DNA of 32,000 nucleotides from Pengzhenrongella phosphoraccumulans (GCF_045689905.1 NZ_CP144210.1:357240-389239); one strand, 5' to 3'. Positions 1,027-18,197 are shown, counted from the first letter of the stretch. The notes: a model not told the origin generated them from the letters alone. Made by a program: numbers and translations.

Positions 1027-1161
1027 CGGGCCACCCTAGATGTCCGGGTGAATGTGGGCCACCGGCGGGGCTCCGCTGGTAACCGGGAGCCCGCAGGGAC
1101 AGGCTGGAGCGACGCCGACCGATCGAGGCGCCGACGAGCGGAACCAACGATTGAGGACGCT

Positions 1162-2091
1162 ATGAGCTCGCCCAGGGACATCGAGCACCTTCAGGTCGAC
1201 GTCGAGGACAACCTGCGGGAGTACATCGACCGCCTGATCGCCGAGGGGTACTCGGTGGCGGGCGGCCAGGGCGCGGACCCGTTGCTCATCGACCCGGGTG
1301 GCAAGGCGGTGGAGACCTGGCGCGAGGACTACCCGTACGACGAGCCGCTCGATCGGGACCTCTACGAGGAGCAGAAGTACCTCCTGCAGATCGAGCTGCT
1401 CAAGCTCCAGTACTGGGCGGAAGATCACGGCGAGCGCCACATCATCGTGTTCGAGGGGCGCGACGCCGCCGGCAAGGGCGGCACGATCAAGCGCTTCATG
1501 GAGCACCTCAACCCCCGGGCCGCGCGTGTGGTCGCATTGACCAAGCCCACCACCACCGAGGCCGGCCAGTGGTACTTCCAGCGCTACGTGCAGAACTTCC
1601 CCACGTCGGGCGAGATCGTGCTGTTCGACCGGTCCTGGTACAACCGGGCCGGGGTGGAGCGCGTGATGGGCTTCTGCACCGACGAGCAGTACGAGGTCTT
1701 CATGAAGCAGACGCCGGAGTTCGAGCGGCTGATCGTCGACGCCGGCATCCACCTGACGAAGTTCTGGTTCTCCGTGACCCGCCGCGAGCAACGCACCCGG
1801 TTCGCCATCCGCCAGATCGACCCCGTGCGTCGCTGGAAGCTGTCCCCGATGGATCTGGAGTCGCTGGGCCGGTGGGACGCCTACACCGACGCGAAGCGGG
1901 AGATGATCGCGGGCACCGACACCGACTACGCTCCCTGGATCACGATCCGCAGTAACGACAAGAAGCGGGCGCGGCTCGACGCGATGCGCTACTTCCTGAG
2001 CCAGTTCGACTACGAGGGCAAGGACCACGCGACCGTCGCCGCGCCGGACCCGCTGATCGTGATGCGCGCCCGCGACGCCGTCGGCGACTGA
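1162..2091 (+). CDS. ppk2: polyphosphate kinase 2 (PPK2)
   Basis: In-frame ATG at 1162 preceded by GAGGAC. Walker-A-like FEGRDAAGKGGTIKR, then FDRSWYNRAGVERVMGF and RWKLSPMD motifs characteristic of PPK2. The ORF-track extension back to 772 overlaps the VOC gene antisense and is not used. Confidence 0.9.
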   Translation: MSSPRDIEHLQVDVEDNLREYIDRLIAEGYSVAGGQGADPLLIDPGGKAVETWREDYPYDEPLDRDLYEEQKYLLQIELLKLQYWAEDHGERHIIVFEGRDAAGKGGTIKRFMEHLNPRAARVVALTKPTTTEAGQWYFQRYVQNFPTSGEIVLFDRSWYNRAGVERVMGFCTDEQYEVFMKQTPEFERLIVDAGIHLTKFWFSVTRREQRTRFAIRQIDPVRRWKLSPMDLESLGRWDAYTDAKREMIAGTDTDYAPWITIRSNDKKRARLDAMRYFLSQFDYEGKDHATVAAPDPLIVMRARDAVGD

Positions 2092-2106
2092 TTCCGCTCG
2101 ACCTCG

Positions 2107-2667
2107 CTAGTCCTCGATGACGTCGAGCCCCTGCTCCCGGAGCTGGGCGAGATGGTCGAGCATTCCTTTGAGCACCTCGGGGGCGTGGCCCTGCCACGTC
2201 TCCAGCTCGGCGACGACGCGAAGCGGGTGGCGCGTCCGGTAGGACTGCGTGGGGTTGCCGGGGAACCGCTTGTTGGTCACGTTCGGGTCGTCCTCGAACG
2301 GCCCCAGGGGCTCGACGACGTAGATGTGCCCCCGCTCCGCTGTGCCAGCCTGCGCGGTCGCCAGCTCCGCCGTGCCAGCCTGCGCGGTCGCCAGCTCCGC
2401 CGTGCCAGCCAGCGCGGTCGCCAGCTCCGCTCCCCAGGCGGCCGTGTCCACGAGCGCCGTGAAGTAGATGTTGTGGGACACCCGGCCCGCCTGGAAGTTG
2501 GAGCCGAAGCCGGGGACGAGCTCGGTACCGACCGCGAGCGCCGACTTCGTGCCATGGAAGAACGGGCCCTCGACGTGGGCGCAGCTGTCGTAGGTGACCG
2601 GCTGGGAGGCCGACTGCTCGTCCTGCCAGGCGGCCGGGCGCTTCGTTCCGAAGGCTTCGGATGACAT
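2107..2667 (-). CDS. arr: NAD+-rifampin ADP-ribosyltransferase (Arr family) with internal repeat expansion
   Basis: 186-aa ORF with Arr hallmarks: GPFFHGTK, HNIYFTAL, AAWGAELA, YVVEPLGPFEDDPNVTNKRFPGNPTQSYRTRHPLRVV, C-terminal VIED. Nearly collinear with Arr-2/Arr-ms as I remember them, except for the repeat insertion. Confidence 0.9.
   Translation of the reverse strand: MSSEAFGTKRPAAWQDEQSASQPVTYDSCAHVEGPFFHGTKSALAVGTELVPGFGSNFQAGRVSHNIYFTALVDTAAWGAELATALAGTAELATAQAGTAELATAQAGTAERGHIYVVEPLGPFEDDPNVTNKRFPGNPTQSYRTRHPLRVVAELETWQGHAPEVLKGMLDHLAQLREQGLDVIED
2341..2430. repeat. 3 x 30-bp head-to-tail tandem repeat inside arr
   Basis: Units are 2341-2370, 2371-2400 and 2401-2430 (consensus cgtgccagcctgcgcggtcgccagctccgc). 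Unit 1 differs from the consensus at 1 base, unit 2 matches it, and unit 3 differs at 1 base. On the minus strand they encode AELATALAGT / AELATAQAGT / AELATAQAGT in frame. Confidence 0.95.
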
Positions 2668-2718
2668 GGCGTGATCGTAGTGACCACCTCCACCCTCCGC
2701 TGCCCCACCGGTGCTCGA

Positions 2719-3873
2719 TCAGGGACGCGGTGGTCCACCGGCCGCAGGCAGCGTGATCCGGAACACCGCACCGGAACCGACCCCGCTCGTGGCGGTGAGC
2801 GTCCCCCCGTGCGCCTCGACGATCGCGCGGGCGATCGTCAGACCGATCCCGCTCCCCGCCGACGTGCGGGTCCGGGACGCGTCGGTGCGGTAGAACCGTT
2901 CGAAGATCCGCTCGGCGTCCGCCGGGTCGAAGCCCTCGCCGGAGTCGATCACCTCGAGCACGGCGGTCGCCGGTGGCGTCTCGCCCTCGCCTGCCCGCAC
3001 GACGACGCGCACCTCGCCACCGGCGGCGGTATGCCGCAGCGCGTTGTCGAGGAGATTCGCCACGACCTCGGCGAGCCGCTCCGGGTCGACCCGCACGAGC
3101 GGAGCCTCGTCGTCGATCTCGACCTCGAGGCGCACGTGCGCCGCCGCGAACCGGGCACCCGCCGCACCCACCGCCCCCGTTGCCAGGCCGGCCGCGGGCA
3201 GCACCCGCGGGCGCAGGTCGAGCTGGCGCTCCTCGGCGCGCGACACCGCCGCCATGTCGGCGACGAGGTGCTGCAGGCGGGTCGTCTGCTCGCTCAAGGT
3301 GGCCAGCGTGGCGCCGTCGGCGGGCAGGACGCCGTCAACCACGGCCTCGACGGTGGCCTCGAGCGACGCCAGCGGCGTGCGCAGCTCGTGCGCGAGGTCG
3401 CCGATGAGGCGCCGCCGGGTGGTCTCCGTCTCGGCCAGCCGTCCGGCCATCGCGTTGAACGCGTCGGCGAGCTGGACGAACTCCGGTCCGATGGCCGGGA
3501 CCTCGACCCGGGCCTGGAGGTCACCCGCCGCGATGCCCTCGGCGGCGGCGGCGACCGCGGCGACCGACCGGCCCAGGCGCTGCGCCACGACCCACGTGAT
3601 CGCGAACGCCGTGATCAGCGCGACGGGCAGCGCCACCGCGAGCGCGACCAGGACAGCGTTCGCGAAGGCGTCGTCGATGTGGGCCTGCAGCCCGGGCTCG
3701 ATCGCCCCGCCGGGCACGTCGAGCAGGTGCGAGTGGAAGATCTGCGGCGCGATCGCCAGCGCGACGCCGAGCAGGGTCAGCGCGCCCGCGAGCACGACCA
3801 GCCCGAGCGCGACCATGAGGCGCCAGGCGAACCCGAGCGGGGCCCGCGGCAGGCGTGCCCGCGCGCCGGTCAT
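2719..3873 (-). CDS. two-component sensor histidine kinase (2 TM, HAMP, HisKA, HATPase_c)
   Basis: ATG at 3873 overlaps the regulator stop (ATGA). Two TM helices flank a short His-containing loop (QIFHSHLLDVPGG..QAHIDD). H-box is LAHELRTPLASL and G-box is GSGIGLTIARAIVEAHGG. The 640-aa ORF-track version is an artefactual upstream extension. Confidence 0.9.
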   Translation of the reverse strand: MTGARARLPRAPLGFAWRLMVALGLVVLAGALTLLGVALAIAPQIFHSHLLDVPGGAIEPGLQAHIDDAFANAVLVALAVALPVALITAFAITWVVAQRLGRSVAAVAAAAEGIAAGDLQARVEVPAIGPEFVQLADAFNAMAGRLAETETTRRRLIGDLAHELRTPLASLEATVEAVVDGVLPADGATLATLSEQTTRLQHLVADMAAVSRAEERQLDLRPRVLPAAGLATGAVGAAGARFAAAHVRLEVEIDDEAPLVRVDPERLAEVVANLLDNALRHTAAGGEVRVVVRAGEGETPPATAVLEVIDSGEGFDPADAERIFERFYRTDASRTRTSAGSGIGLTIARAIVEAHGGTLTATSGVGSGAVFRITLPAAGGPPRP

Positions 3874-4586
3874 CCCGGACCGATGCGGTAGCCGACGCCA
3901 CGGACGGTGCGGATGTAGCGCGGCGCCGCGACGTCGTCGTCCAGTTTGTGTCGCACGTGCCCGATGTGGATGTCGACGAGCCGCTCGTCGCCGACCCAGC
4001 CCGGGCCCCAGACGCGCTCGATGAGCTGGGTGCGGGTGAACGCGGTGCGGGGTCTCGACGACAGGGCGTCGAGCAGGTCGAACTCCGTGCGGGTCAGGTC
4101 GACCAGCTGCCCGTCGAGCCGCACCTCGCGCGCCTCGGGGTCGATCGAGACCGCGCCCACCCGGCGCACGGTCGTCGCCCCCGCGGGTTCGACCCCCGTG
4201 CGCGGCCGGCGCAGCAGGCTGCGGATCCGCGCGACGAGCACGCGCGACGAGAACGGCTTGGTCAGGTAGTCGTCCGCGCCCACCGACAGCCCGATGAGGG
4301 TGTCGATCTCGTCCACCCGGGCCGTGAGCATGATCACGTAGGCGTCGCTGAACGTGCGCAGCTGCCGACACACCTCGATCCCGTCGATCCCGGGCATCAT
4401 CACATCGAGGACGACGACGTCCGGTGCACTCGCGCGCGCCGAGGCGAGGGCCGAGGCGCCGTCGGCCGCGGCCACCACCTCGAAGCCCTCGCGTTCGAGA
4501 TAGGCCGCGACGACCCGGACCAGCGCCGGCTCGTCGTCGACGACGAGGGCGCGGATGCGTTGCTCGGTACTCAGGGGTTCTCCCAC
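3870..4586 (-). CDS. OmpR-family response regulator
   Basis: Receiver motifs (RALVVDDEP, VVLDVMMPGIDG, DDYLTKPF) plus a winged-helix C-terminus (TRTEFDLL, VRGVGYRI). Start taken as GTG 4586, which is uncertain. Confidence 0.88.
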   Translation of the reverse strand: MGEPLSTEQRIRALVVDDEPALVRVVAAYLEREGFEVVAAADGASALASARASAPDVVVLDVMMPGIDGIEVCRQLRTFSDAYVIMLTARVDEIDTLIGLSVGADDYLTKPFSSRVLVARIRSLLRRPRTGVEPAGATTVRRVGAVSIDPEAREVRLDGQLVDLTRTEFDLLDALSSRPRTAFTRTQLIERVWGPGWVGDERLVDIHIGHVRHKLDDDVAAPRYIRTVRGVGYRIGPG

Positions 4587-4933
4587 CCACGCATGTGGTC
4601 TCGGCGATCAGTCCGCGGCCCGGGCCGCTCCGTGCGGTCACCGTCGCCCATCATCCCCGGACCGCGGTCGCCGCCGCGCCAGAACTGATGGGTGCCGTCG
4701 CCGGGACCCATCCGGTCTGAGTAACCCGACCCAGGACCCACCGCGCCGGTCAGGGCGGCGACGGCGACGAACGAGCCGAGCAGGAGCGCCACGGCGGCGA
4801 CCAGCGCCGTGACCAGCCAGCCGCGGCGATGGTTTCGGGGCTGGGGCGCCACTGGCGGCGGGGTCGGAGACTGCATGGTCGGGGACTGCGGGTCGGGCGT
4901 GGTTGCAGCCGGTTCCATCGGGGTCGCGGCCAT
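4571..4933 (-). CDS. hypothetical single-pass membrane protein (Pro-rich N-terminus, Gly/Met/Asp/His-rich C-terminus)
   Basis: 120-aa ORF with one clear TM helix (WLVTALVAAVALLLGSFVAVAAL), high GC3, and 1-nt overlap (TGATG) with the upstream SHOCT gene. It overlaps the regulator start by 16 nt. No family recognised. Confidence 0.5.
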   Translation of the reverse strand: MAATPMEPAATTPDPQSPTMQSPTPPPVAPQPRNHRRGWLVTALVAAVALLLGSFVAVAALTGAVGPGSGYSDRMGPGDGTHQFWRGGDRGPGMMGDGDRTERPGPRTDRRDHMRGWENP

Positions 4934-5259
4934 CAGACACCGCCTCGGGCCGCGATCAGGGCCGCACGGTGAGCCTGGTAGGTCTCCAGGTCGATCTCAC
5001 CCTGCGCGAACCTGCGGTCGAGGATCTCCACGGGCGACTCGAGCGCGCCGTGCCCGGGCGCGAGCGGCAGGGCCGACGTCGGCTGCTGCGCCATCGCCGG
5101 GCCGGTCGACCGCCCGTTCGATGGAACGAGGCGGATCACGAGCCAGACGATCGCCGCGATCAGAGCGACCCAGAACAGGACCATGAGGATCCACAGTCCC
5201 CCGCCCATCCCGCCGCCGTACAGCCGCATCATGTCCAGCGGCATCCTGTCCAGCACCAT
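4933..5259 (-). CDS. SHOCT-domain membrane protein
   Basis: ATG at 5259 is preceded by a perfect AAGGAG 6 nt upstream. The ORF-track GTG at 5274 lies inside that RBS region. The Gly-rich N-terminus and TM helix (LWILMVLFWVALIAAIVWLVI) are followed by a C-terminal ILDRRFAQGEIDLETYQAHRAAL that looks like a SHOCT domain. Confidence 0.65.
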   Translation of the reverse strand: MVLDRMPLDMMRLYGGGMGGGLWILMVLFWVALIAAIVWLVIRLVPSNGRSTGPAMAQQPTSALPLAPGHGALESPVEILDRRFAQGEIDLETYQAHRAALIAARGGV

Positions 5260-5413
5260 GTCGATCTCCTTCACTCGTGTGAAACGTCCCGCGGGTGGAC
5301 CGTCCCCACGGGTACTGCGTCCAGCCTTGCGCGCCTCGACGAGGATCGCGACGAGGAAGCATGAAGATCCGACGAAGTTCCACGGTTGACCGGGCCGCCA
5401 CCAGCAGAGCGTA

Positions 5414-5427
5414 TGATGAAATCATCA
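5414..5427. promoter_or_regulatory. palindrome TGATGA-AA-TCATCA in an AT-rich patch upstream of arsR (candidate operator/promoter)
   Basis: Perfect 6-bp inverted arms sit within 5411-5450, the only clearly AT-rich segment in this region. It lies about 60-75 nt upstream of ATG 5488, in the divergent intergenic region. Confidence 0.35.
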
Positions 5428-5487
5428 ACTGATTAATTCAAGAACTTTGAGTCCTCCTGGACCCGACGCAGAAGGACGAACCCCGCC

Positions 5488-5835
5488 ATGCCGGAACCGA
5501 TCGACAGGCTGAAGGCCGAGTTCTTCAAGACGCTCGGGCACCCTGCCCGGATCCGCATCCTCGAGCTGCTCTCGACCGGCGAACGGTCGGTCGGCGAGCT
5601 GATGCCCGAGCTCGGTCTCGAGGCCTCCCACCTGTCCCAGCAGCTCGCGGTGCTGCGCCGGGCCGGCGTCGTCGTGGCCCGCAAGCAGGGCAACACCGTG
5701 ATCTATTCGATGGCCTCCGCGGACATCGCCGCACTGCTGCAGCTCGCCAGGAAGGTGCTGACGGGTCTGCTCGCCGAGCAGATGGACCACCTGTCCGACA
5801 TCCAGGCGACCGGGCAACCGGCCGCCAGCAGCTGA
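5488..5835 (+). CDS. ArsR/SmtB-family transcriptional regulator (Cys-free)
   Basis: RBS GAAGGA before ATG 5488. Typical wHTH (LGHPARIRILELL...RSVGEL...LSQQLAVLRRAGVV). The protein contains no cysteine. Positioned like Rv0081 in front of the hyc-like operon. Confidence 0.9.
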   Translation: MPEPIDRLKAEFFKTLGHPARIRILELLSTGERSVGELMPELGLEASHLSQQLAVLRRAGVVVARKQGNTVIYSMASADIAALLQLARKVLTGLLAEQMDHLSDIQATGQPAASS

Positions 5836-5968
5836 GTCCGGCGCCACTGCGCACGGCCCGCACCACCGCGCACGACCCGCACCATCCACACGATCGGCCC
5901 CACCCTTGCGGGCGAACTGGGCCCGCACCTCGCACCCGAAGAGCACGTCGCAGACGAAAGAGGCACTC

Positions 5969-6448
5969 ATGACCTGGATCGGCAAGATCCGCCGAGTCGG
6001 GCGCGTCGTCGAACCCGCGAACGACGCCCCCGCGGACACGATCACGCCGCCGACCGGGGTGACCGGGTCGCTCCAGCTGCGGCACGTCGACGCCGGGTCG
6101 TGCAACGGGTGCGAGCTCGAGATCACGGGCGCCTTCTCCCCCGTGTACGACGCCGAGCGGTTCGGGGCACGGCTGATCGCCTCCCCGCGCCACGCCGACG
6201 GCATCCTCGCGACCGGGGTCGTGACCCACAACATGCTCCAGCCGTTGCTCAACACCCTGGATTCCGTGCCCGAGCCGCGCGTCGTGATCGCCGTCGGGGA
6301 CTGCGCGTGCAACGGCGGGGTGTTCCGCAAGGGCTACGGCGTCGTCGGCTCCGTCGCGGACGTGGTGGACGTCGACGTGCAGGTTCCGGGTTGCCCGCCC
6401 ACGCCCGACCAGATCGTCGCCGCCCTACGGACGGTGACCGGCCGGTGA
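5969..6448 (+). CDS. NuoB/HycG-like Fe-S small subunit of a group-4-hydrogenase-related complex
   Basis: ATG 5969 follows GAAAGAGG. The [4Fe-4S] Cys pattern is retained: GSCNGCE, GDCACNGG, GCPP. The 159-aa size matches the Rv0082-type protein as I recall it. Confidence 0.88.
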   Translation: MTWIGKIRRVGRVVEPANDAPADTITPPTGVTGSLQLRHVDAGSCNGCELEITGAFSPVYDAERFGARLIASPRHADGILATGVVTHNMLQPLLNTLDSVPEPRVVIAVGDCACNGGVFRKGYGVVGSVADVVDVDVQVPGCPPTPDQIVAALRTVTGR

Positions 6449-8448
6449 GCACCACCCTGCACCTGCCCGCGCCCGTCGAGGAGCTCGGCGAAGGGCCCCG
6501 CACGGCCCGCCGCGCCCGCGAGGCCCTGCTGTCGGGTGCCGTGACGACATTCCTTGGCGCCGCCGGCCTGGTCCTCGGCCTGACTGTGATCTTCGGACCC
6601 ACCCGGCACCTGCGCATCGCGTGGCTCCTCCCGCTCGTCGGGGTCCGGTTCGACCTCGACCCGCTCAGCGGGATCTTCGTCGCCGCGACCGGCGCCGTGG
6701 CGATCGCCGTCGGGATCTACGCCATCGGCTACGCCCAACGCGAGCACTGGGCGCGGTTCCCGATGGTGGTGCTGCCGCTGTTCGTGGGCGGCATGCTGCT
6801 CGTCCCGGCAGCGGGATCGGTCACGACGTTCCTGCTCGCCTGGGAGCTGATGGCCGCAGCGTCGCTCGTCCTGGTGCTCACCGAGCACCAGCGCGGGGCC
6901 GTCCGGTTCGCCGGGGTCTTCTACGCGGTCATGACCCAGCTCGGCTTCGCGATGATCCTGCTCGCGCTCGTGCTCCTGTCGGCGGCTGCCGGGGGTGACG
7001 CGTTCACGATGATCGCGGCCCACGCGGCGGGCATGTCGCCGGGCACCCGCACCGCGGTCTTCCTGCTGACGGTCCTGGGGTTCGGCTCGAAGGCCGGGCT
7101 CCTTCCGCTGCACGCCTGGCTGCCGAAGGCGCACCCCGAGGCCCCGAGCCCGGTCTCGGCGCTGATGAGTGCCGCGATGGTCAACATGGGCATCTACGGC
7201 ATCATCCGCATCGACCTGCAGATCCTCGGGCCGGGCCCGCACTGGTGGGGCCTGACGCTGATGATCCTCGGCGCCGTCTCGGCGGTCTTCGGCGTGCTCC
7301 AAGCCTCGGTGGCCACCGACCTGAAGCGGCTCCTGGCCTACTCGACCACCGAGAACATGGGTCTCGTGACGCTCGCGCTCGGCGCCGCAGCGCTGCTGAG
7401 CGCGTCCGGTGCGCCGGGGGTGGCCACGATCGCCATGACAGCGGCGCTCCTGCACGTGCTCGCGCACGCCGCGTTCAAGACGTTGGCCTTCCTCGCTGCC
7501 GGCTCGGTCCTGGCCCAGACGGGCCTGCGTGACCTCGACAAGCTCGGCGGGCTCGCCCGCCGCATGCCGGTGACCACGGTGATGTTCGGGATCGGCGCGC
7601 TCGGCGCGTCCGGGCTCCCGCTCGGCGCCGGGTTCGTCAGCGAGTGGCTGCTGCTCCAGAGCCTGATCCACTCCCCGCACGACGGCAACACGCTGCTCGC
7701 GCTGGCCATGCCGTTGTCGGTGGGCGCTGTCGCGCTCACCACCGGGCTCGGCATCGCTGCGATGGTCAAGGCGTTCGGGGTCGGCTTCCTGGCCCGACCC
7801 CGGTCGGTCGCCGCCGAGGACGCGCACGAGGCGTCGTCGAGCATGCTCCTCGGGATGGGCGTCGCGGCCACGGCCTGCGCGGTCTTCGCCTTCTCGCCCG
7901 CCCTGCTCGGCCCCGCCCTGGGCCAGGTCCTCGCCGAGCTGCCGAGCATCACCGGCGAGGCGGCCGGCCCGCGGCTGGGCACGTTCCTGCGCCTGCCGGG
8001 CGTCACCGGTTCGATGTCCCCGGCCCTGCTCGCGATCGCCCTCGTGGTCGGCGTGCTTGTCGCACTGGCGCTGTCGCGCTGGGGCGCTCGGCACCGGCCG
8101 GCGCCGCGCGTCGCCCCGCTGTGGGCCTGCGGCGGCGACTCGCTCAGCCCCCGCATGCAGTACACCGCGACCTCGTTCGCCGAACCGCTGCAGCGCGTGT
8201 TCGACAACGTGCTGTCGCCCGATACCGACGTGGAGGTCACTCATTTCGCCGAGTCCCAGTACCTGGTCGAGAAGGTCACGTTCCACACCCGGCTCGCCGA
8301 TCCGGTGGAGCAACGGCTCTACACCCCGGTGGTGCACGCCGTGACGGCGCTGGCCCAGACGATCCGGCGCGCCCACAACGGCAGCGTCCACCTCTACCTC
8401 ACGTACGGCGCCCTCGGGCTGCTCGTCGTGCTGCTGGCCGCGCAGTGA
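6445..8448 (+). CDS. NuoL/HyfB/HycC-like proton-conducting antiporter-type membrane subunit
   Basis: GTG 6445 overlaps the upstream stop (GTGA). Polytopic, with WLPKAHPEAPSPVSALMSA, TENMG and LAYST motifs typical of Mrp/NuoL-type subunits. Confidence 0.85.
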   Translation: MSTTLHLPAPVEELGEGPRTARRAREALLSGAVTTFLGAAGLVLGLTVIFGPTRHLRIAWLLPLVGVRFDLDPLSGIFVAATGAVAIAVGIYAIGYAQREHWARFPMVVLPLFVGGMLLVPAAGSVTTFLLAWELMAAASLVLVLTEHQRGAVRFAGVFYAVMTQLGFAMILLALVLLSAAAGGDAFTMIAAHAAGMSPGTRTAVFLLTVLGFGSKAGLLPLHAWLPKAHPEAPSPVSALMSAAMVNMGIYGIIRIDLQILGPGPHWWGLTLMILGAVSAVFGVLQASVATDLKRLLAYSTTENMGLVTLALGAAALLSASGAPGVATIAMTAALLHVLAHAAFKTLAFLAAGSVLAQTGLRDLDKLGGLARRMPVTTVMFGIGALGASGLPLGAGFVSEWLLLQSLIHSPHDGNTLLALAMPLSVGAVALTTGLGIAAMVKAFGVGFLARPRSVAAEDAHEASSSMLLGMGVAATACAVFAFSPALLGPALGQVLAELPSITGEAAGPRLGTFLRLPGVTGSMSPALLAIALVVGVLVALALSRWGARHRPAPRVAPLWACGGDSLSPRMQYTATSFAEPLQRVFDNVLSPDTDVEVTHFAESQYLVEKVTFHTRLADPVEQRLYTPVVHAVTALAQTIRRAHNGSVHLYLTYGALGLLVVLLAAQ

Positions 8449-9407
8449 GCGCCCTGTCGATCGTCGCGGCGGCCCTGCAGGTCGTCGTCGTCCTCGTCGG
8501 CGCGCCCTTCGTGGTCGGCGGGATGCGCCAGGTGCGCGCGCGCCTCGAAGGCCGCGCCGGGGGCGGCGTCGGGCAGCCCTGGCGCGACCTGCGCAAGCAG
8601 CTCCGCAAGCAGCAGATCACCCCGCGCGGCACGACGATCGTGTTCGCGATCGCACCGGCGGTCGCGGCCGGCACGACACTGCTCATCGCGGCGATCCTGC
8701 CGATCTTCGCGCTCGGCTCGCCGCTGGACTCGGTCGCGGACCTGTTCGGCGTCGTCGGCCTGCTCTTCCTCGGGACGGTCGCCCTCACGCTCGCCGGCCT
8801 CGACACGGGCACCGCGTTCGGCGGGATGGGGTCGAGCCGCGAGATCACGATCGCCGCGCTCGTCGAGCCGACGATCCTGCTCGCCGTGTTCGCCCTGTCG
8901 ATCCCGGGCCAGTCGGCCAACCTGTCGGCCATCGTCTCGGCCACCCTGGACGATCCCGGTCAGGTGCTCTCGCTCGGCAGCGTGCTCGCCTTCGTCGCGC
9001 TGGTCATCGTCATCATCGCCGAGACCGGCCGGCTGCCCGTCGACAACCCGTCGACGCACCTCGAGCTGACGATGATCCACGAGGCGATGGTCCTGGAGTA
9101 CTCGGGCCCGAAGCTCGCGCTCATCGAATGGGCGAGCGGCATGCGCCTGACCGTGCTGCTCGCCCTGCTCGCGAACCTGTTCCTGCCCTGGGGCATCGCG
9201 GGCGCCGACCCCTCGCTGCTGGCGGTGCTGCTCGGCGCCGTCGCGATCGCCGTCAAGGTCGCGGTGCTGGCCGGACTGCTCGCGGCGGGCGAGGTCTTCA
9301 TCGCCAAGCTGCGGTACTTCCGGGTGCCCGAGCTGCTCGCGGGTTCGTTCCTGCTCGCGCTGCTCGCGGTGACCGCGTCCTACTTCCTCGCCACCCCGAC
9401 CCAATGA
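8445..9407 (+). CDS. HycD/HyfC/NuoH-like membrane subunit
   Basis: GTG 8445 overlaps the upstream stop (GTGA). A 320-aa polytopic protein with [26 protein letters not shown], a NuoH/HycD-like loop. Confidence 0.85.
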
Positions 9408-9423
9408 CCGGACGGATTCGCTG

Positions 9424-10086
9424 ATGTCCCTCGCGACCTATACCGGCGTGCTCGACCTCACCGCGGGAGCTTTCCTGCTCACCGCGGTGCTCATCGTGTG
9501 GCGCCGCGAGCTCCGCTCCATCGTGCACCTGCTGGCCTGGCAGGGCGCGGCCCTCGCCGCGATCCCGCTCACCGAGGGGCTCTACCAGCGCGACCCCGGC
9601 CCGGTGATCGTCGGGCTCGTCGTGCTCGCGCTGCGCGCCGGGGTGCTGCCGGTCCTGCTCCTGCGTGCGGTGGGCACCGCCGACAACGAACGTCGCGAGA
9701 GCACGCCGCTGGTCAACACGACGTCCTCCCTGCTGATCACGGCCGCGCTCACCGTCCTGGCGTACGCGGTCACCCGGCCGATCATCGCGCTCGACCCGAC
9801 ACCGGCCACCCGCGCGGTCCCGGCCGCGTTCGCCGTGATCCTCATCGCGCTCTTCGTGATGGTCAGCCGGCGGCGCGCGCTCTCGCAGGCGGTCGGGTTC
9901 CTCATGCTCGACAACGGCATCACGGCCACGGCCTTCCTCATCACCGGCGGCGTCCCGCTGATCGTCGAGCTCGGCGCGTCCCTCGACGTGCTGTTCGCGG
10001 TCTTCGTGCTGGGACTGCTCACCGGCCACATGCGTCGCGCCTTCGGTGGCACCGACCTCGACCAGCTACGGGAGTTGCGCGACTGA
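9424..10086 (+). CDS. HyfE/HycP-like small membrane subunit
   Basis: 220-aa multi-TM ORF in the position and size of HyfE / Rv0085-type proteins. Confidence 0.7.
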
Positions 10087-11555
10087 TGGGCCTTGTCCTG
10101 CTCGTACCGATCCTTGCCCCGCTCGTCGCCGCCGGCCTCGCCGCAGCGCTCGGGTGGCGCCGACTGACCGCCTACGTGACCCTCGCCGCCGCCCTGAGCG
10201 TGCTGGTCACGGGCATCCTGCTCGCCACCCGGGTCGAGTCCGGGGCGCGCTTCGCCGTCGACCACCTGCTGCGGGCCGACTCGCTCAGCGTCACCATGCT
10301 GCTGGTCATGGGGACGGTGGGCACGCTCGCGACCTGGGCCAGCGTCGGCTACATCGACGCCGAGCTGCGCGACGGGCACACCGACCGCCGCGGCGCGCAC
10401 CTGTACGGCGTGCTGCTTCCGCTCTTCCTCGCCGCGATGGCCCTGGCCGTGCTGGCGAACAACATCGGCGTCATGTGGGTGGCCATCGAGGCCACCACCG
10501 TGGCGACGGCGTTCCTCGTCGGCCACCGCCGCACCCGGTCCGCGCTCGAGGCGACCTGGAAGTACGTCGTGATCTGCTCGGTCGGGATCGCGCTGGCGTT
10601 CCTCGGCACCGTGCTGCTCTACTTCGCGAGCCTGCACGCCGGCGCCTCGAGCGCGCACGCGCTGGACATCGACACACTACTCAACAACGCGGCCCAGCTC
10701 GACCCGGACGTCACCCGCCTCGCGGCAGGGCTCCTGCTGCTCGGGTACGGCGCCAAGGCGGGGCTCGTGCCCTTCCACACCTGGCTCGCCGACGCCCACA
10801 GCCAGGCTCCCGCGCCGGTCTCCGCGCTGATGAGCGGGGTGCTGCTCTCGGTCGCGTTCGCGTGCCTGCTACGCGTGAAGTCGGTCGTCGACCTCACGCT
10901 CGGCACCGGGTTCCTGCGGACCGGGCTGCTCATCGTCGGGCTGCTGACGCTGCTGATCGCCGCGTCGTTGCTCGTGGTCCAGACGGACTTCAAGCGCATG
11001 CTCGCCTACTCCTCGATGGAGAACATGGGCCTCGTCGCGATCGCCGCGGCTGCGGGCACCGAGCTCGCGATCGCCGCGCTGCTGCTGCACGTGCTGGCGC
11101 ACGGTATCGGCAAGTCGCTCGTGTTCCTCGCCTCCGGTCAGCTGCAGGCCGCCCACGAGTCGACCGCGATCAGCGCGGTCACCGCCGTCCTCTCGCGCTC
11201 ACGTCTCGTCGGCGTGTCGTTCGCCGTCGGACTCGCGGTCCTGATCGGGCTGCCCCCGTTCGCGATGTTCGCGAGCGAGCTGTCCATCTCGCGCGCCCTC
11301 GCGGGGGCCAACCTCGCCTGGGTGCTCGGCGCGACGCTGCTCCTCATGACCGTCGCGTTCACCGCCCTGGTCCGCAACGGCAGCCGCATGCTGCTCGGCA
11401 CGCCGCAGCCGAACGCCCCGGTGATCGCCCTGCCGGGCACGATCGCCGCAGCGCTCGTCACGGGGATGATCCTCAGCCTGGCCCTCGGGCTGAGCGCGGG
11501 CCCCCTCACCCAGCTCTTCCAGTCCGCTGCCACCCAGCTCGGAGCAAGCTCATGA
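10086..11555 (+). CDS. HyfF/HycQ/NuoN-like antiporter-type membrane subunit
   Basis: ATG 10086 overlaps the upstream stop by 1 nt (TGATG). A 489-aa polytopic protein with WLADAHSQAPAPVSALMSG and LAYSSMENMG motifs. Confidence 0.85.
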   Translation: MGLVLLVPILAPLVAAGLAAALGWRRLTAYVTLAAALSVLVTGILLATRVESGARFAVDHLLRADSLSVTMLLVMGTVGTLATWASVGYIDAELRDGHTDRRGAHLYGVLLPLFLAAMALAVLANNIGVMWVAIEATTVATAFLVGHRRTRSALEATWKYVVICSVGIALAFLGTVLLYFASLHAGASSAHALDIDTLLNNAAQLDPDVTRLAAGLLLLGYGAKAGLVPFHTWLADAHSQAPAPVSALMSGVLLSVAFACLLRVKSVVDLTLGTGFLRTGLLIVGLLTLLIAASLLVVQTDFKRMLAYSSMENMGLVAIAAAAGTELAIAALLLHVLAHGIGKSLVFLASGQLQAAHESTAISAVTAVLSRSRLVGVSFAVGLAVLIGLPPFAMFASELSISRALAGANLAWVLGATLLLMTVAFTALVRNGSRMLLGTPQPNAPVIALPGTIAAALVTGMILSLALGLSAGPLTQLFQSAATQLGASS

Positions 11556-13093
11556 CCGTCCCCTTCGCCCCGACCGGCGTTCCCGTCGGCGTCCACCGCA
11601 CCAGCCGGACGCTGCTGCCGGAGGAGATCGCCGACCAGTCCGCCTGGCTGCTCGCGGCCGGATTCCGCCTCGGCCTCGTCGCCGCGCACGACGACGGCGC
11701 GACGCTGCGGGTCGTCTACCTGTTCCTCGCCGGCAGCCCCGACCGCCGCGTCGAGCTGCAGGTCCGGCTGCCCGCCGACGACCCGCGGATCGGCTCGCTC
11801 GCCCCGCTGTCGTTCGCGGCCTCCCGGTTCGAGCGCGAGATGCACGACCTCTACGGCATCGTGCCGGTGAACCACCCGCTCCCCCGCCGCATGGTGCGCC
11901 ACGCGCACTGGCCGGCGGGCTGGTACCCGATGCGCCACGACGCCGGCGACCCGCCGCCGTTCCACGAGACCGGCGCCGACGCCTACCCGTTCATCGCGGT
12001 CGAGGGTGACGGCGTCTACGAGATCCCCGTCGGCCCGGTGCACGCCGGTGTCATCGAGCCGGGCCACTTCCGCTTCTCCGTCGTCGGGGAGTCCGTGCTC
12101 AAGCTCAAGGCCCGACTGTGGTTCACCCACCGCGGCGTCGAGAAGCTCTTCGAGGGGCTCGAGGCCACCGAGGCGATCCACCTGGCCGAGCGCATCAGCG
12201 GGGACACGTCCGCCGCGCACGCGCTCGCCCACACGCTCGCCGTCGAGGATGCGCTCGGCATCACGATGACCGAGCCGGCGCAGCGGCTGCGCGCGCTCTT
12301 GGTCGAGCTCGAGCGCCTCTACAACCACGCCGCCGACCTGGGGGCGCTGGCCAACGACGTCGGCTTCTCGCTCGCCAACGCGCACGCCCAACGGATCCGG
12401 GAGCAGCTCCTGCGGATCAACCTCGCGGTCACGGGCCACCGGCTGCTGCGCGGCGCGATCCGCCCCGGCGCGGTCGAGCTCCTCAGTTTGCCGGACCCCG
12501 CCGAGCTCGACCGGATCGCCGCGGACCTCGCGGAGGTCGTCGAGCTCTCGCTCGAGAACTCGGTGATCCGCGAGCGGTTCACCGGCACGGCCAGGCTCAC
12601 CCGCACGCAGGCGCACGACCTCGGCTGCCTCGGCTACGTCGCCCGCGCGAGCGGGGTGGCCACCGATGCGCGGATCGATCACCCGACGGTCCCGCTCGCG
12701 GTGACCCCCGCGACCGGGGCCGACGGCGACGTGCTCGCGCGCTACCTGATCCGACGCGACGAGTTCGCCACGTCGATCCGGATCGTCAAGGCGCTCATCC
12801 GGTCGGCCGGACCGCTCCGTTTCCTGGCTGCGCCGGACGGGACCGGAACGACCGACCCGACCGAGGAGACCGCTGCGGTCCGCAGCGGCGTCGGCATCGT
12901 CGAGGGCTGGCGCGGGACGATCGTGCACCGCGTCGAGGTGGCCCCCGACGGGCGCCTGACGCGCGCGAAGATCGTCGACCCGTCGTGGTTCAACTGGCCG
13001 GCCCTGCCGCTGGCGATGGCCGACACGATCGTGCCGGACTTCCCCGTCACCAACAAGAGCTTCAACCTGTCCTACGCCGGCAACGACCTGTAG
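11552..13093 (+). CDS. HycE-like fused NuoC-NuoD 'large subunit' lacking all Ni-Fe cysteine ligands (Ehr-type)
   Basis: ATG 11552 overlaps the upstream stop (ATGA). The NuoC-like N-terminal domain (FEREMHDLYGI) is followed by a NuoD/HycE-like domain (GPVHAGVIEPGHFRF, RLWFTHRGVEKL). The RxCGxCxxxH position reads RISGDTSAAH (12191-12220). The C-terminal DPCxxCxxR position reads NLSYAGNDL (13064-13090). Confidence 0.9.
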   Translation: MTVPFAPTGVPVGVHRTSRTLLPEEIADQSAWLLAAGFRLGLVAAHDDGATLRVVYLFLAGSPDRRVELQVRLPADDPRIGSLAPLSFAASRFEREMHDLYGIVPVNHPLPRRMVRHAHWPAGWYPMRHDAGDPPPFHETGADAYPFIAVEGDGVYEIPVGPVHAGVIEPGHFRFSVVGESVLKLKARLWFTHRGVEKLFEGLEATEAIHLAERISGDTSAAHALAHTLAVEDALGITMTEPAQRLRALLVELERLYNHAADLGALANDVGFSLANAHAQRIREQLLRINLAVTGHRLLRGAIRPGAVELLSLPDPAELDRIAADLAEVVELSLENSVIRERFTGTARLTRTQAHDLGCLGYVARASGVATDARIDHPTVPLAVTPATGADGDVLARYLIRRDEFATSIRIVKALIRSAGPLRFLAAPDGTGTTDPTEETAAVRSGVGIVEGWRGTIVHRVEVAPDGRLTRAKIVDPSWFNWPALPLAMADTIVPDFPVTNKSFNLSYAGNDL

Positions 13094-13123: not shown

Positions 13124-13459
13124 TCAGCCGTGCCGGCGCCGGCCGCTCGCGACGCCACCACCGGCGCCGCCCGAGAAGATCATGCTCACGCCGAGCATGA
13201 AGCCGAAGTTGTACCAGTTGCCGTTGTTGTGGATCTCGTAGATGCCCACGTCCGGGTTGAACAGCGACACGATGAACGTGATCGGGCTGATCAGGCCCTG
13301 CCACAGGCCGAGCCAGAAGCCCGCGACGTCGGGGTCGCCGACCCCGGCCGCCTCGTTCGGCCCCGCCGCGCACGCGGCGAGCCCGAGCACGCCGACCACC
13401 ACCATCACTGCGACGAGCAGCACCGTCCGCACCCGCCGGGTCCGCCTCAGTTGCGCCAT
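13124..13459 (-). CDS. small putative lipoprotein / membrane protein
   Basis: 111-aa ORF with a basic N-terminus, hydrophobic core and lipobox-like LGLAAC, followed by two hydrophobic segments. No family recognised. Confidence 0.5.
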   Translation of the reverse strand: MAQLRRTRRVRTVLLVAVMVVVGVLGLAACAAGPNEAAGVGDPDVAGFWLGLWQGLISPITFIVSLFNPDVGIYEIHNNGNWYNFGFMLGVSMIFSGGAGGGVASGRRRHG

Positions 13460-14386: not shown

Positions 14387-15304
14387 CTAGACGCCGACCT
14401 CGCGCGGCAGCGTCTCCGGGGCGCTCCACACGCGCCAGGACACGAGCATCCCGCCGGAGAGCAGCATCGCGAGCCAGACGAGCTGGGGCGCGACCCCGAC
14501 GCCCTGCACCGTCGCCTGCAGAGCCGCCGTCACGAGAGCGCCGAGCACGAGCACCGCTGTCACGTCGAGCGCCTGCGCACGGGCCAGCGCGGCGAACCAC
14601 GTCGCGACGTACGCCGCGAGGATCACCCCGGTCAGGAGCACCCAGCCCCACTGGGTGGCATCCATCGACAGCAGCATCGAGGCCTGCCCGCGCACCACGA
14701 CCCACGCGACGAGCAGGATCGACCCGATCCCCATCCGGGCCAGCCCGACGGTCCACGACGACACCCCGGCAAGCAGCCGCTTGGCGACGATCACCTCGAC
14801 GGACCAGAACAGGGTCGCGGCGAGGATCATGAGCTCGCCCGAGCCGAGGTCGGTCGAGACGCCGCCGACGAGCCCGATCTGGCCGATCACCAGCAGCCCT
14901 ATCGCGACCCAGTGGAAGGCGGACATCCGCTCCCCGAGCAGCGCGACCGCGAGCACCGCGACCCAGACCACCAGGGTCTTGTGGATGAATGCGGACTGCA
15001 CCGACGACGCCCGCGCGAGCCCCTCGAAGAAAAGCAGGAACGGCACGGAACCACCGATCACCCCGACGGTCACCAGGCCGAGCCACTGCCGGGTGCCCTC
15101 CGGCCGGGTGACCCGCGCGCCGGCGCCGCGCCCGAGGGTCACGACGGCGAGCAGGACGGCGGCCGCCACGAGGTTCTTGGCGGTGGTGTAGACGGAGGCG
15201 TTGCCGAACGCCTTGACGCCGTAGCCGTTGAGGAAGACCGCGAACCCGCTGATGCAGGCCGTGGCGAGCGCGAGAAGTAGCCCTGTCCGTCGGGTGCTGG
15301 TCAT
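14387..15304 (-). CDS. EamA/DMT-superfamily permease
   Basis: 305-aa protein with about 10 TM helices in a two-EamA-repeat architecture. Its ATG overlaps the hypC stop (ATGA). Confidence 0.8.
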   Translation of the reverse strand: MTSTRRTGLLLALATACISGFAVFLNGYGVKAFGNASVYTTAKNLVAAAVLLAVVTLGRGAGARVTRPEGTRQWLGLVTVGVIGGSVPFLLFFEGLARASSVQSAFIHKTLVVWVAVLAVALLGERMSAFHWVAIGLLVIGQIGLVGGVSTDLGSGELMILAATLFWSVEVIVAKRLLAGVSSWTVGLARMGIGSILLVAWVVVRGQASMLLSMDATQWGWVLLTGVILAAYVATWFAALARAQALDVTAVLVLGALVTAALQATVQGVGVAPQLVWLAMLLSGGMLVSWRVWSAPETLPREVGV

Positions 15305-15600
15305 GCCGATCCCTCCCAGGGGGTGCGGTGTGCAGCGGTGGCTGCCGAGCGCCCAGCGCGCACGGGCGCTGGCAGAACGGGGGGTTGGGACGCGCCGGCG
15401 CGCAGCGCGAGGGCCTCGGCGGCCTCCTGCGCGCCGAGCCGCTCGAGCGCGAAGCCGGAGTGGACCACGACCCAGTCGCCCACGGCGACGGCGTCATCCA
15501 GGGTCACCAGCGACACGGCGACCGTGCGGTCCGCGGTCGCGACGATCCCGGTGGCCCCGGGGCGGACCTCGACGAGTCGGCCGATCTCACCGAGACACAT
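15301..15600 (-). CDS. hypC: HypC/HybG/HupF-family [NiFe]-hydrogenase assembly chaperone
   Basis: Begins MCLGEIGRLVEV, with the invariant N-terminal Met-Cys. The core reads VSLVTLDDAVAVGDWVVVHSGFA. It has a roughly 35-aa Ala/Pro-rich C-terminal tail. The ORF-track start at 15720 is rejected. Confidence 0.85.
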   Translation of the reverse strand: MCLGEIGRLVEVRPGATGIVATADRTVAVSLVTLDDAVAVGDWVVVHSGFALERLGAQEAAEALALRAGASQPPVLPAPVRAGRSAATAAHRTPWEGSA

Positions 15601-16087
15601 CGGCGACCACCCCCTGCGCGGCAACGTGGCACGCACCCAGGACCGCGGCGACCGCACCGTCCAGCGCCGACCGAACCCCGGGCGACAGCGCCGCACCGTG
15701 CTCGACCGTGGCGGCCTCAACCCCGACGAGCACGAGGCGGCGCGGGAGCGAGTGCAGCGCGCGACCCAGCTCGACGGCGGCGGCGAGCCCGAAGGCGTGC
15801 GTGCCGCCCCGGCCGGTACTGGCCCAGGCGTCCGCGGTGAGCGGCGCGGCTTCGGTCCCGGCCTCGAGCACGAGCAGCGTCCCGGGCGGAGCGCCCGATG
15901 TCACGGCGTCGACCACGACGGCGAGCTCCGACCCGCGCCACAGGTCGATCAGGCCGGTCGGGTCCTCGTGCTCGACGACGACGACGTCCGGCGGCGCGAG
16001 CTCGGCGACCCGGCGCGCGACCCAGAGCCCGACGGCGTCGTCGCCGCCGTCGGGGCTGCCGAGCCCGATCACGAGGGTGGCCGTCAC
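15587..16087 (-). CDS. hydrogenase maturation endopeptidase (HycI/HybD/FrhD family)
   Basis: GTG 16087 overlaps the large-subunit stop (GTGA). Motifs LVIGLGSPDGGDDAVG, VVDAV and GTHAFGL are typical of the family. Confidence 0.8.
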   Translation of the reverse strand: MTATLVIGLGSPDGGDDAVGLWVARRVAELAPPDVVVVEHEDPTGLIDLWRGSELAVVVDAVTSGAPPGTLLVLEAGTEAAPLTADAWASTGRGGTHAFGLAAAVELGRALHSLPRRLVLVGVEAATVEHGAALSPGVRSALDGAVAAVLGACHVAAQGVVADVSR

Positions 16088-17390
16088 GACCGCTCCACCG
16101 TGAGGTCGAGGAAGTGCGTCGCGCACGAGATGCACGGGTCGTAGTTGCGGATGGCCGCCTCGCACCGGTGGGATAGGTCGTGGTCGGACAGCTCGACCCA
16201 GCGCTCGGCAAGAGTGCGCATGTCCGCCTCGATGCTCGGCTGGTTCTGCGAGGTCGGCGGCACGATCTGCGCGTCCAGGATCGTGCCGGCCGCGTCCAGG
16301 CGGTACCGGTGGAAGAGCACCCCGCGGGGGCCTCGGTCGCACCGAAGCCCTCCCCGGCGCGCGCGGGCACGGGGACCGAGGGCGGCACGCCGTCGCGCCA
16401 GGCGTCGATGATCGCCAGCGCCTCGTGGAAGATCTCGACCAGCTCGACCGCGCGCACGATGATCGACCGGAACGGGTTGCGGCACGTCTCGCCGAGCCCC
16501 GCCTCCCGGGCCGCCTGCTGGGCGAGCGGCGACAAGCGGTCGAAGTTCAGCGTGTAGCGGGCCAGGGGGCCGACGACGTAGGGGCCGCCGCCGTCGAGCC
16601 GCGCGTGCAGCGAGTTCGAGTGCGCGACGTGGAACTCGGTGATGTGCTCGGTGAACTCGCGCACGTCGAACGCGGTCCCGGCGGTCGTCACGACGTTGCC
16701 CGACTCGATCGGGTACCCGCTCTCGGGGCGCAGCGAGAGGTAGGTGTACGGCTGCTCGAAGTCGGGGAAGTCGAACGTCGACACCAGACGCACCGTCTCG
16801 AGCGCATCCTCGAGCGCTCGCTCGAGGGCCGGCCGAAGTCCCATGAGCTCGGCCACCGTGGGCATCCGGTAGAAGCCGCCGAGCTTGACGTTGATCGGGT
16901 GCACCGAGCGGCCCCCGACCAGGGTCATCAGCTGGTTGCCGACCTTCTTCAGCCGCAGGCCACGTTCGACGGCGTCCGGGAAGTCCTTCGCCATCTCGAT
17001 CGCGCCGGGGTACCCGAGGAAGTCGGGGGTGTGCAGCAGGTAGATGTGCAGCGCGTGGCTCTCGATCCACTCGCCGCAGTACAGCAGCCGCCGCATGGTC
17101 CGGATCGTGTCGGGCACGCTGACACCGCACGCGTCCTCGAGCGCGAAGCACGCGCTGAACTGGTAGGCGACCGGGCAGATCCCGCAGATGCGGGCGGTGA
17201 TGTCCGGCGGCTCGGTCCACGCCCGACCCCGCAGGAACGCCTCGTAGAAGCGGGGCGGCTCGAAGATCCGCAGCTCGACCGCGCCGACGTGACCGTCCTT
17301 GATCTCGAGGTGCATGCCCCCCTCGCCCTCGACGCGCGACAGCGTGCCGACGTGCAGCACCTGACCGCCGTCGGTCAGCTTGTGGCTCAT
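16084..17390 (-). pseudogene. hyhL: [NiFe]-hydrogenase group 3b large (alpha) subunit, interrupted by a 1-nt frameshift as assembled
   Basis: The N-terminal frame (17390 down to ~16330) has RVEGEGG and RICGICPVAY and ends at ..GFGATEAP. The C-terminal 81 aa (RGVLFHRY...NYDPCISCATHFLDL, stop 16084) continue in the -1 frame. The junction is at the G5 run 16326-16330 (C5 on the coding strand). One extra C would give an intact 435-aa protein. This may be a sequencing error. Confidence 0.85.
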
Positions 17391-18196
17391 GTCATCGCCC
17401 CCTCGTCGCGCGCGGGCTCATGTCGTTCGCTCTCGCGGCGGAACGGCTCGGACGCGGCATTGAACGTCCGATAGATGCGCATGACCTCGTCGTCGGCCAT
17501 GCCGAGCGCGATCAGGCGGTCCGAGAGCGCGACGGTGTTCGGGGAGTCCTGCGGCCCGAAGCAGCCGTAGCAGCCGCGCGCGAACGCCGGGCAGAGCGCG
17601 CCGCAGCCCGCCTGCGTGACCGGTCCGAGGCACGGCGTGCCGTTCGCGACCGCGACGCACACCGCACCGCGCCGCTTGCACTCGACGCACACGCTGTAGG
17701 TCGGGATGCGCGGCACGCGACGCTGGATGTAGGCCGCGAGGACCTCGAGCAGCTGGTTCTTGTTGATGGGGCACCCGCGCAGCTCGAAGTCCACGCTGAC
17801 GTGCGCCGAGATCGGCGTCGACCGCGCCAGGGTCGACAGGTACTCCGGGTGCGCGTACACGATCGACCGGAACTCCGCGATGTCCCCGAAGTTGCGCAGC
17901 GCCTGGATCCCGCCGCTCGTCGCGCACGCGCCGATGGTCACGACGTGCTTCGACATCTCGCGGACCTGGCCGATGCGTTCGATCTCCTCGGGGGTCGTGA
18001 CCGATCCCTCGACGAGGGACACGTCGTAGGGCCCGTCCACGACGGCGCGCGTCGCCTCCGGGAAGTAGGCGATCTCCACCTCCCCCGCGAGGGCCATGAG
18101 CTCGTCCTCGCAGTTGAGCAGGGTCAGCTGGCAGCCGTCGCACGAGGCGAACTTCCACACGGCCAGCTTGGGCAGGGTCGACGACTGGGTGGTCAT
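17387..18196 (-). CDS. hyhS: [NiFe]-hydrogenase group 3b small (delta) subunit
   Basis: [16 protein letters not shown] and GCP motifs plus a Cys-rich C-terminal half ([31 protein letters not shown]). Its stop overlaps the hyhL ATG (ATGA). Confidence 0.88.
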
Positions 18197-18197
18197 G

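Follow-up and report, generated by a model that had tools for sequence, protein, structure and literature searches.

We analyzed a stretch of 32,000 nucleotides (nt) from Pengzhenrongella phosphoraccumulans (order Micrococcales; NZ_CP144210.1, positions 357240 to 389239), called the window below, which has a G+C content of ∼72% and harbors a gene cassette for a putative energy-converting hydrogenase-related (Ehr) complex. Six ehr genes are packed tightly across positions 5969 to 13093, with arsR ahead of them (Table 1). A preliminary description, made from the sequence alone, had listed the gene order, coordinates, and lengths, all of which we reproduced by mapping open reading frames (ORFs) and by running Pfam and NCBIfam profile searches. 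The junctions were also as it had given them: ehrS and ehrA, like ehrA and ehrB, overlap by 4 nt (GTGA), ehrB and ehrC are separated by 16 nt, ehrC and ehrD overlap by 1 nt (TGATG), and ehrD and ehrL overlap by 4 nt (ATGA). The gap between arsR and ehrS measures 133 nt. Scans for sigma-70 promoters and intrinsic terminators around arsR and 3' of ehrL returned nothing, which is uninformative in an actinobacterium with 72% G+C.

Table 1. Genes and operator-like element of the ehr locus (positions counted from the first nucleotide of the window; aa, amino acids)
Feature	Position	Strand	Product or description
Operator-like palindrome	5414-5427	none	TGATGAAATCATCA; 6-2-6 architecture, 60 nt 5' of the arsR start codon
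arsR	5488-5835	+	115 aa; ArsR/SmtB-family repressor, Rv0081 type; Pfam HTH_5 (9e-13), NCBIfam HTH_metalloreg (6.5e-24)
ehrS	5969-6448	+	159 aa; NuoB/HycG-like small subunit; Pfam Oxidored_q6 (3e-28)
ehrA	6445-8448	+	667 aa; HyfB/HycC/NuoL-like, antiporter-like; NCBIfam HyfB (1.9e-169), Pfam Proton_antipo_M (7e-53)
ehrB	8445-9407	+	320 aa; HycD/NuoH-like membrane subunit; Pfam NADHdh (1.4e-39)
ehrC	9424-10086	+	220 aa; HyfE-like membrane subunit; NCBIfam "hydrogenase 4 membrane subunit" (2.3e-19, below cutoff)
ehrD	10086-11555	+	489 aa; HyfF/NuoN-like, antiporter-like; NCBIfam HyfF (2.7e-102), Pfam Proton_antipo_M (7.6e-46)
ehrL	11552-13093	+	513 aa; NuoC-NuoD/HycE-like fusion; Pfam Complex1_30kDa, Complex1_49kDa (4e-24), NiFeSe_Hases (N-terminal part; 5e-10)

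The family assignments of the cassette genes were far above chance with both Pfam and NCBIfam, and, with E values of 1e-34 to 1e-57 to subunits of formate hydrogenlyase (FHL), the folds of the subunits are not in doubt. The scores for HyfB, HyfF, and HyfE all fell under the NCBIfam equivalog cutoffs, so the proteins are relatives of these named enzymes and not those enzymes themselves. The ehrC product had no Pfam match and no solved homologue detectable by sequence.

The conservation of the cassette was evaluated in 80 loci obtained by a pattern scan (one genome per species), whose EhrL proteins are 53 to 87% identical to that of the window and which include up to 10 kb of flanking DNA per side, or less where contigs end. 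They cover Micrococcales, Mycobacteriales, Pseudonocardiales, Kribbella, Streptomyces, Streptosporangiales, Frankiales, and Acidimicrobiia, and the closest named relative is Pengzhenrongella frigida (87% identity in EhrL). The gene order, including the position of ehrC, was identical in 59/59 loci having all six ehr genes, and the cassette is thus conserved outside its source genome; confinement to that genome would have spoken against the preliminary description. In 47 of these 59 loci, an arsR homologue lies no more than 2.6 kb from the cassette: it is upstream in 39 and downstream in 12, with 4 loci having one on either side.

In Pseudonocardia acaciae, the cassette is present twice, on separate scaffolds (L031 and L032), and a locus binned with the Gemmatimonadota (L052) is 74 to 75% identical to the window and looks like a mis-binned actinobacterial contig. 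In a metagenome-assembled genome of the Dermatophilaceae (L008), a 399-aa ORF on the opposite strand (8529 to 9728 of that locus) lies between ehrD and ehrL, splitting two genes that, in the window and many other loci, overlap or directly adjoin each other. This ORF resembles by eye a transposase of the TnpB/IS605-OrfB type, with two CxxC pairs near its C terminus.

We then looked into the active-site motifs of the large subunit. The best solved relative of EhrL is E. coli HycE (7z0s_E; E = 3e-57), while the large subunit of Pyrococcus MBS/MBX (6u8y_L) matched at 2e-14 only. The L1 motif of HycE (RxCGxC; R-V-C-G-I-C...H) aligns with R214-I-S-G-D-T219...H223 of EhrL, and its L2 motif (DPCxxC; D-P-C-Y-S-C-T-D-R) aligns with the C terminus of EhrL, N505-L-S-Y-A-G-N-D-L513, the protein ending in SFNLSYAGNDL. 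All four cysteines that ligate the NiFe site are therefore replaced in this alignment (C to S, C to T, C to S, and C to G), and the replacements are nearly invariant in the 80 loci, in line with the placement of the cassette in the Ehr class by the preliminary description. Over 81 EhrL sequences, G217, D218, and H223 are conserved at 100% and S216 at 95%; T219 is conserved at 85%, with serine in 11 of the remaining sequences, and the columns of the C-terminal NKSFNLSYAGNDL are each conserved at 88 to 98%. Judging from these alignments, EhrL carries a strictly conserved polar pocket (S-G-D-T/S...H plus N-L-S-Y-A-G-N-D-L) in place of the NiFe site.

When 1.84 billion cluster representatives were searched exhaustively, 6,174 relatives of EhrL were returned at E ≤ 1e-3, a count that includes true hydrogenases and NuoD-type relatives. 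We surveyed the motifs of the 104 full-length sequences among the best 150 of these matches and found that 65 had no cysteine at either site. The signature S-G-D...H plus S-F-N-L-S-Y-[AS]-G-x-D-L was present in most of the 104 relatives, at 35 to 60% identity, so the cysteine-free pocket is an old, selected trait of a large clade rather than the product of decay. Both cysteine pairs (C-G-x-C and C-Y-x-C) are retained in 18 of the 104 (37 to 46% identity), which, by these motifs, are true hydrogenases.

The residues that bind quinone in complex I are also replaced. In a local HMMER sequence alignment, as opposed to a structural one, the quinone-ligating histidine ("THG") of Aquifex NuoCD (7q5y_B) aligns with I168 of EhrL and the tyrosine ("RMDY") aligns with G217, both of which are invariant in the family. 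In Thermus thermophilus Nqo4, these ligands of NuoD are H38 and Y87.

The small subunit has kept its cluster-binding residues. The best solved relatives of EhrS are HycG (7z0s_G; 4e-34) and MbhJ (2e-32), with the four [4Fe-4S] cysteines in register, and C45, C48, C112, and C142 were invariant in 60/60 sequences. EhrS is thus predicted to bind one [4Fe-4S] cluster. In the membrane arm, the best solved relative of EhrA is HycC (7z0s_C; 1.4e-56), and the relatives of the two antiporter-like subunits include MrpA and MrpD. The ion-channel residues that we checked, namely glutamates, lysines, and one aspartate, are conserved at 92 to 100%: E134, K216, K345, and E400 of EhrA are invariant across the family, as are E141, D200, E207, and E218 of EhrB (E213, 97%) and K224 and K343 of EhrD (E135, 99%; E398, 92%). 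H223 of EhrA is invariant too. The mean column identities of EhrS (0.67) and EhrL (0.63), compared with those of EhrA (0.59) and EhrD (0.60), put the conservation of the peripheral subunits on a par with that of the membrane subunits, and the remodeled EhrL pocket and the single EhrS cluster are under strong purifying selection.

As the preliminary description had stated, we found no electron-input module: the 32-kb window contains no HycF/NuoI-type, formate dehydrogenase (FDH), or NuoEFG gene, except for one 2x[4Fe-4S] protein that belongs to a separate, convergent operon for a group 3b-type [NiFe] hydrogenase. Neither were homologues of NuoA, NuoI, NuoJ, NuoK, or NuoE to -G detected with Pfam and NCBIfam, and the set falls short of the 11 or more subunits of the NDH-1 core. 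A six-frame scan for CxxCxxCxxxCP ORFs in the 80 loci and their flanks detected none adjoining the cassette; the four ORFs with this motif, window included, were the group 3b beta subunits in the window, L001, and L033 and an unrelated small ORF in L073, ∼10 kb from the cassette. When flanking ORFs with high G+C at third codon positions and within 5 kb of the cassette were clustered over the 80 loci, ArsR alone recurred (40 loci), all other neighbors being present in at most 6. The group 3b hydrogenase was rejected as an input module, as it neighbors the cassette only in the window, L001, and L033 (3/81). A HycF-like or dehydrogenase partner merely displaced in this genome, which the preliminary description had envisaged as a counterargument, does not consistently accompany the related loci either. 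From these gene neighborhoods, the six-gene set is self-complete across Actinobacteria, with no displaced partner.

We then analyzed the regulator and the DNA upstream of it. ArsR of the window has no cysteine, and among 37 orthologues from loci with an upstream arsR, 33 likewise lack cysteine, and the other 4 contain a single one; every one of these cassette-linked proteins has the conserved S-x-L-S-Q-Q recognition helix. The M. tuberculosis regulator Rv0081 is an autorepressor that lacks cysteines and metal-binding residues and contacts DNA through S48, S49, S52, and Q53 (bioRxiv 10.1101/465575). The likeness of ArsR to Rv0081 was judged by cysteine count and recognition helix, and an operator-like inverted repeat is present 5' of the operon. 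An identity as a BigR-like sulfite/persulfide sensor was rejected on the basis of a score of 58 bits against a cutoff of 155 and of the lack of cysteine.

The sequence TGATGAAATCATCA is a perfect palindrome and is unique in the window, with a chance expectation of 0.03 at up to 1 mismatch. In 7 other loci an exact match, and in ∼15 more a near-match, was found just 5' of arsR. From TGAT onward, 14 of 17 bases are shared between the window operator and the Rv0081 operator oligonucleotide TATCTGATAAATTCTTCAACT; in the locus comparison, the Rv0081 oligonucleotide set against the palindrome was TATCTGATAAATTCTTCAAC, and the one used experimentally to show binding of Rv0081 was ATCCGCACTATCTGATAAATTCTTCAACTCGTC. 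On this sequence evidence, the palindrome is a candidate operator of ArsR, conserved outside mycobacteria. The gap between arsR and ehrS contains imperfect copies, 18 to 19 nt long, of a CCCGCACCA-type motif, with an abutting pair at 5838 to 5875 and more at 5876 to 5893 and 5922 to 5939. As this gap is ∼0 to 70 nt long in 27 of 37 measurable loci, compared with 133 nt in the window, the array looks like a local expansion. Other repeats in the region 5250 to 5990 were short and chance-like only.

Motifs and subunit composition together make it very probable that the locus encodes an Ehr complex of the ehrABCDLS type and not a hydrogenase. The peripheral arm consists of EhrS, with its predicted [4Fe-4S] cluster, and EhrL, and the membrane arm consists of EhrB, EhrC, EhrA, and EhrD. 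We propose that the complex would neither make nor split H2. Since no NuoI/HycF wire is present, a soluble one-electron carrier would have to reach EhrS directly; this carrier, most plausibly ferredoxin, may dock on the EhrS/EhrL arm. One-electron transfer via the EhrS cluster would be coupled to the movement of H+ or Na+ through EhrA and EhrD, in either direction, and a second substrate would bind in the remodeled pocket at the EhrL/EhrS/EhrB junction, with menaquinone as the leading but weak candidate. By analogy with Rv0081, ArsR would repress the operon until a signal linked to hypoxia or reductive stress relieves repression. We give a probability of about 0.6 to this explanation as a whole, namely, that the locus encodes an Ehr complex of the ehrABCDLS type, is an orthologue of Rv0081-Rv0087 in both content and regulation, and works by the proposed mechanism. 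For a single-cluster, redox-coupled ion translocator taken by itself, we consider the odds to be slightly better than even, and we doubt that ferredoxin and menaquinone are the specific substrate pair.

Several points weigh against this proposal. None of the sequence tests that we ran identified a donor or an acceptor, and the absence of the canonical quinone ligands from EhrL weakens the idea of menaquinone. Two-electron chemistry is not easily accounted for by one [4Fe-4S] cluster. E169 of EhrL aligns with a glutamate shared by HycE and MbhL, which we take to be the proton-relay glutamate of [NiFe] hydrogenases, and is conserved at 81%, with glycine in the rest. The link to hypoxia is transferred by analogy from M. 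tuberculosis, and we met no biochemical data on any Ehr complex in the literature searched.

The alternative that survives best, although we hold it to be improbable, is that the six genes account only for the membrane and adaptor portions of a bigger enzyme, whose input partner is encoded elsewhere and docks on EhrS/EhrL. Candidate partners are a HycF/NuoI-type ferredoxin subunit, an FDH, a NuoEF-like module, or the diaphorase subunits of the group 3b hydrogenase. It is established, and apparent from the names of their molecules, that the characterized relatives FHL, MBH, MBS, and complex I all use a NuoI-type subunit. For Margulisbacteria and Saganbacteria, a complex of FDH with Ehr has been put forward (PMC6349859), Ehr subunits of Geobacter rise on formate (PMC7894505), and the group 3b-type operon is convergent to the cassette in both the window and P. 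frigida. Against such a partner, no gene of this kind recurs in the up to 10 kb per side (less at contig ends) of the 80 loci, ferredoxin-motif ORFs occur in just 3 of them and in the window without abutting the cassette, the group 3b neighbor is as rare as stated above, and exactly six genes are tightly coupled throughout (59/59).

It is somewhat less probable still that the complex functions as a redox-independent, Mrp-like cation/proton antiporter for pH or Na+ homeostasis, its peripheral arm being structural or regulatory. EhrA and EhrD do retain all canonical charged residues and are related to MrpA and MrpD, and a role in pH homeostasis has been suggested for ehrABCDLS of Methylacidiphilum (PMC6688271). 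However, Mrp needs no homologues of NuoB, NuoD, or NuoH, which are here conserved equally with the membrane subunits, and a vestigial arm would hardly be expected to keep its cluster cysteines and pocket invariant throughout the phylum and even outside it. A true group 4 [NiFe] hydrogenase or FHL, as implied by the source annotations ("Ni,Fe-hydrogenase III large subunit" and "formate hydrogenase"), by the E. coli FHL as best solved relative, and by hypC and a maturation protease nearby, is refuted at the sequence level and almost certainly wrong, given that all four Ni/Fe-ligating cysteines are replaced by conserved nonthiol residues, that HycF, HycB, and FdhF are missing, that the hyp genes belong to the adjacent group 3b operon, and that the M. 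tuberculosis operon is accompanied by no NiFe maturation genes (PMC6728331).

In the boldest reading, Ehr might be a self-contained, minimal respiratory ion pump whose one [4Fe-4S] cluster is supplied directly by a soluble carrier, its cysteine-free pocket, invariant throughout the phylum, a novel type of site for catalysis or ligand binding that is distinct from both the NiFe site and the quinone dyad of complex I, and its role the maintenance of redox balance and membrane potential during hypoxia in aerobic Actinobacteria, including M. tuberculosis. We advance this extension tentatively and regard it as rather unlikely in its entirety. Ehr complexes are common and sit evolutionarily between group 4 hydrogenases and complex I, and M. 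tuberculosis bears one of them under its hypoxia hub regulator, Rv0081. The conservation of an Rv0081-type regulator and operator well outside mycobacteria makes study possible in fast-growing, nonpathogenic hosts; species of Streptomyces, Kribbella, and Actinomadura are among the carriers that we found.

The remainder of the window was also examined. The group 3b-type [NiFe] hydrogenase operon (15301 to 20200, minus strand) encodes a Fer4_22 beta subunit, an NAD-binding/FeS gamma subunit, the small and large subunits, a HycI-type protease, and HypC. Relative to its P. frigida counterpart, the large-subunit gene lacks 1 nt near 16322 to 16326, inside the conserved EAPRG motif (GAGGC-CCCCGCGGG versus GAGGCACCCCGCGGC), so that the parts encoding RICGIC and DPCISCATH are out of frame with each other; either the assembly is wrong at a homopolymer or the gene is a pseudogene. 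Directly 3' of ehrL, at a distance of 31 nt and convergent to it, a 111-aa ORF with a lipoprotein-like N terminus (...LGLAAC...) and no Pfam match (13124 to 13459, minus strand) has a conserved counterpart in P. frigida (72% identity) but in none of the other loci. A DUF222-family ORF (20488 to 22188) is flanked by the hydrogenase operon on one side and an M20 peptidase gene on the other; an HNH endonuclease domain is common in actinobacterial DUF222 proteins, and none was reported for this one. A long antisense ORF (19101 to 21959) overlaps the DUF222 ORF and, outside the beta-subunit gene, is probably not a genuine coding region.

Further downstream, a sulfur-trafficking/redox cluster (23962 to 28764) contains a Pyr_redox_2 protein, DsrC/TusE-like (25528 to 25842) and DsrE-like (25901 to 26413) proteins, and overlapping ORFs (26564 to 28764) that match Pyr_redox_2 and rhodanese. 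Beside it are genes for FUR (28795 to 29256), a ferritin-like protein (29082 to 29735), a CsoR-type repressor (31319 to 31660), and thioredoxin (31661 to 31999). This cluster is not linked to the ehr cassette in other loci. Upstream, the region 180 to 4641 holds genes unrelated to the cassette, including DUF2200, a PPK2 polyphosphate kinase, an Arr-type rifampin ADP-ribosyltransferase (2107 to 2667, minus strand), and a HAMP/HisKA histidine kinase (2719 to 4641, minus strand).

Among solved complexes, the E. coli Hyc/Hyf enzymes (7Z0S) are the closest relatives of the cassette products, as seen with EhrL, EhrA, and EhrS, and they share the HyfB, HyfE, and HyfF types. The NiFe site, HycF/HyfH, HycB/HyfA, FdhF, and HyfD are all missing from the cassette, and the complex therefore cannot act as a hydrogenlyase. 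Of the features that would identify a group 4 [NiFe] hydrogenase, the L1 and L2 cysteine motifs are replaced in EhrL, and neither a HycF/NuoI-type subunit nor an FdhF/HycB-type input enzyme was found in the window outside the group 3b operon or next to the cassette in the 80 loci. Homologues of NuoB, NuoC-D, NuoH, and NuoL/N are common to the cassette, to complex I, and to the ferredoxin-dependent photosynthetic NDH-1, and, since cluster ligands and channel residues are kept, this suggests the same coupling principle as in complex I, which differs in that the quinone-ligating His and Tyr of NuoD align with Ile168 and Gly217 of EhrL. Pyrococcus MBS/MBX (6U8Y) provides a precedent for a group 4-derived complex that has lost hydrogenase chemistry and kept redox-driven ion translocation. 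MBS has 13 subunits, including a NuoI-like one, and its proximal cluster may itself be catalytic. The composition of Mrp-type antiporters (MrpA to -G, without Fe-S or NuoD/NuoH-like subunits) is different, as the cassette has conserved NuoB-, NuoCD-, and NuoH-like subunits.

The six subunit types of the cassette, a large subunit without CxxC motifs, and the lack of a ferredoxin-type subunit are also features of the ehrABCDLS complexes of Geobacter sulfurreducens (GSU0739-45), Methylacidiphilum, Nitrospira, and Margulisbacteria. Papers on Margulisbacteria (PMC6349859) and Nitrospira describe Ehr complexes without CxxC motifs and with no known function. The Ehr class and the ehrABCDLS makeup are thus already published, and our locus adds no new class; the missing HycF is a family trait and not a peculiarity of this locus. 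The cassette differs from the published complexes by its gene order, S-A-B-C-D-L, in which the small-subunit gene comes first, and by the leading ArsR repressor. What we add is that no displaced partner was found across Actinobacteria, that the cysteine-free pocket is invariant, and that the Rv0081 operator is conserved beyond mycobacteria.

The published order of Rv0081-Rv0087 of M. tuberculosis is regulator, oxidoreductase, oxidoreductase, HycD, HycP, HycQ, and HycE (PMC6901956). Compared via this gene list, the cassette has the same order led by an ArsR-type regulator, which bears out the resemblance noted in the preliminary description, and the cysteine-free regulator and the operator match too. 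That description had cited Rv0081-Rv0087 as annotated as a formate hydrogenlyase of unresolved function; in the literature, the operon is described as a homologue of Ehr complexes whose functions await determination and as almost certainly not encoding a hydrogenase (PMC6728331). Four Mycobacterium loci of our sample (L021 and L023 to L025) encode EhrL proteins with 66 to 68% identity and have the same layout as far as their contigs reach. Our locus differs from the M. tuberculosis locus in belonging to a member of the Micrococcales, in having no Rv0088-like gene downstream, and in having the group 3b hydrogenase operon next to the cassette. As the structural genes, the regulator, and the operator all match, we consider the locus to be orthologous to Rv0081-Rv0087 in content and regulation.

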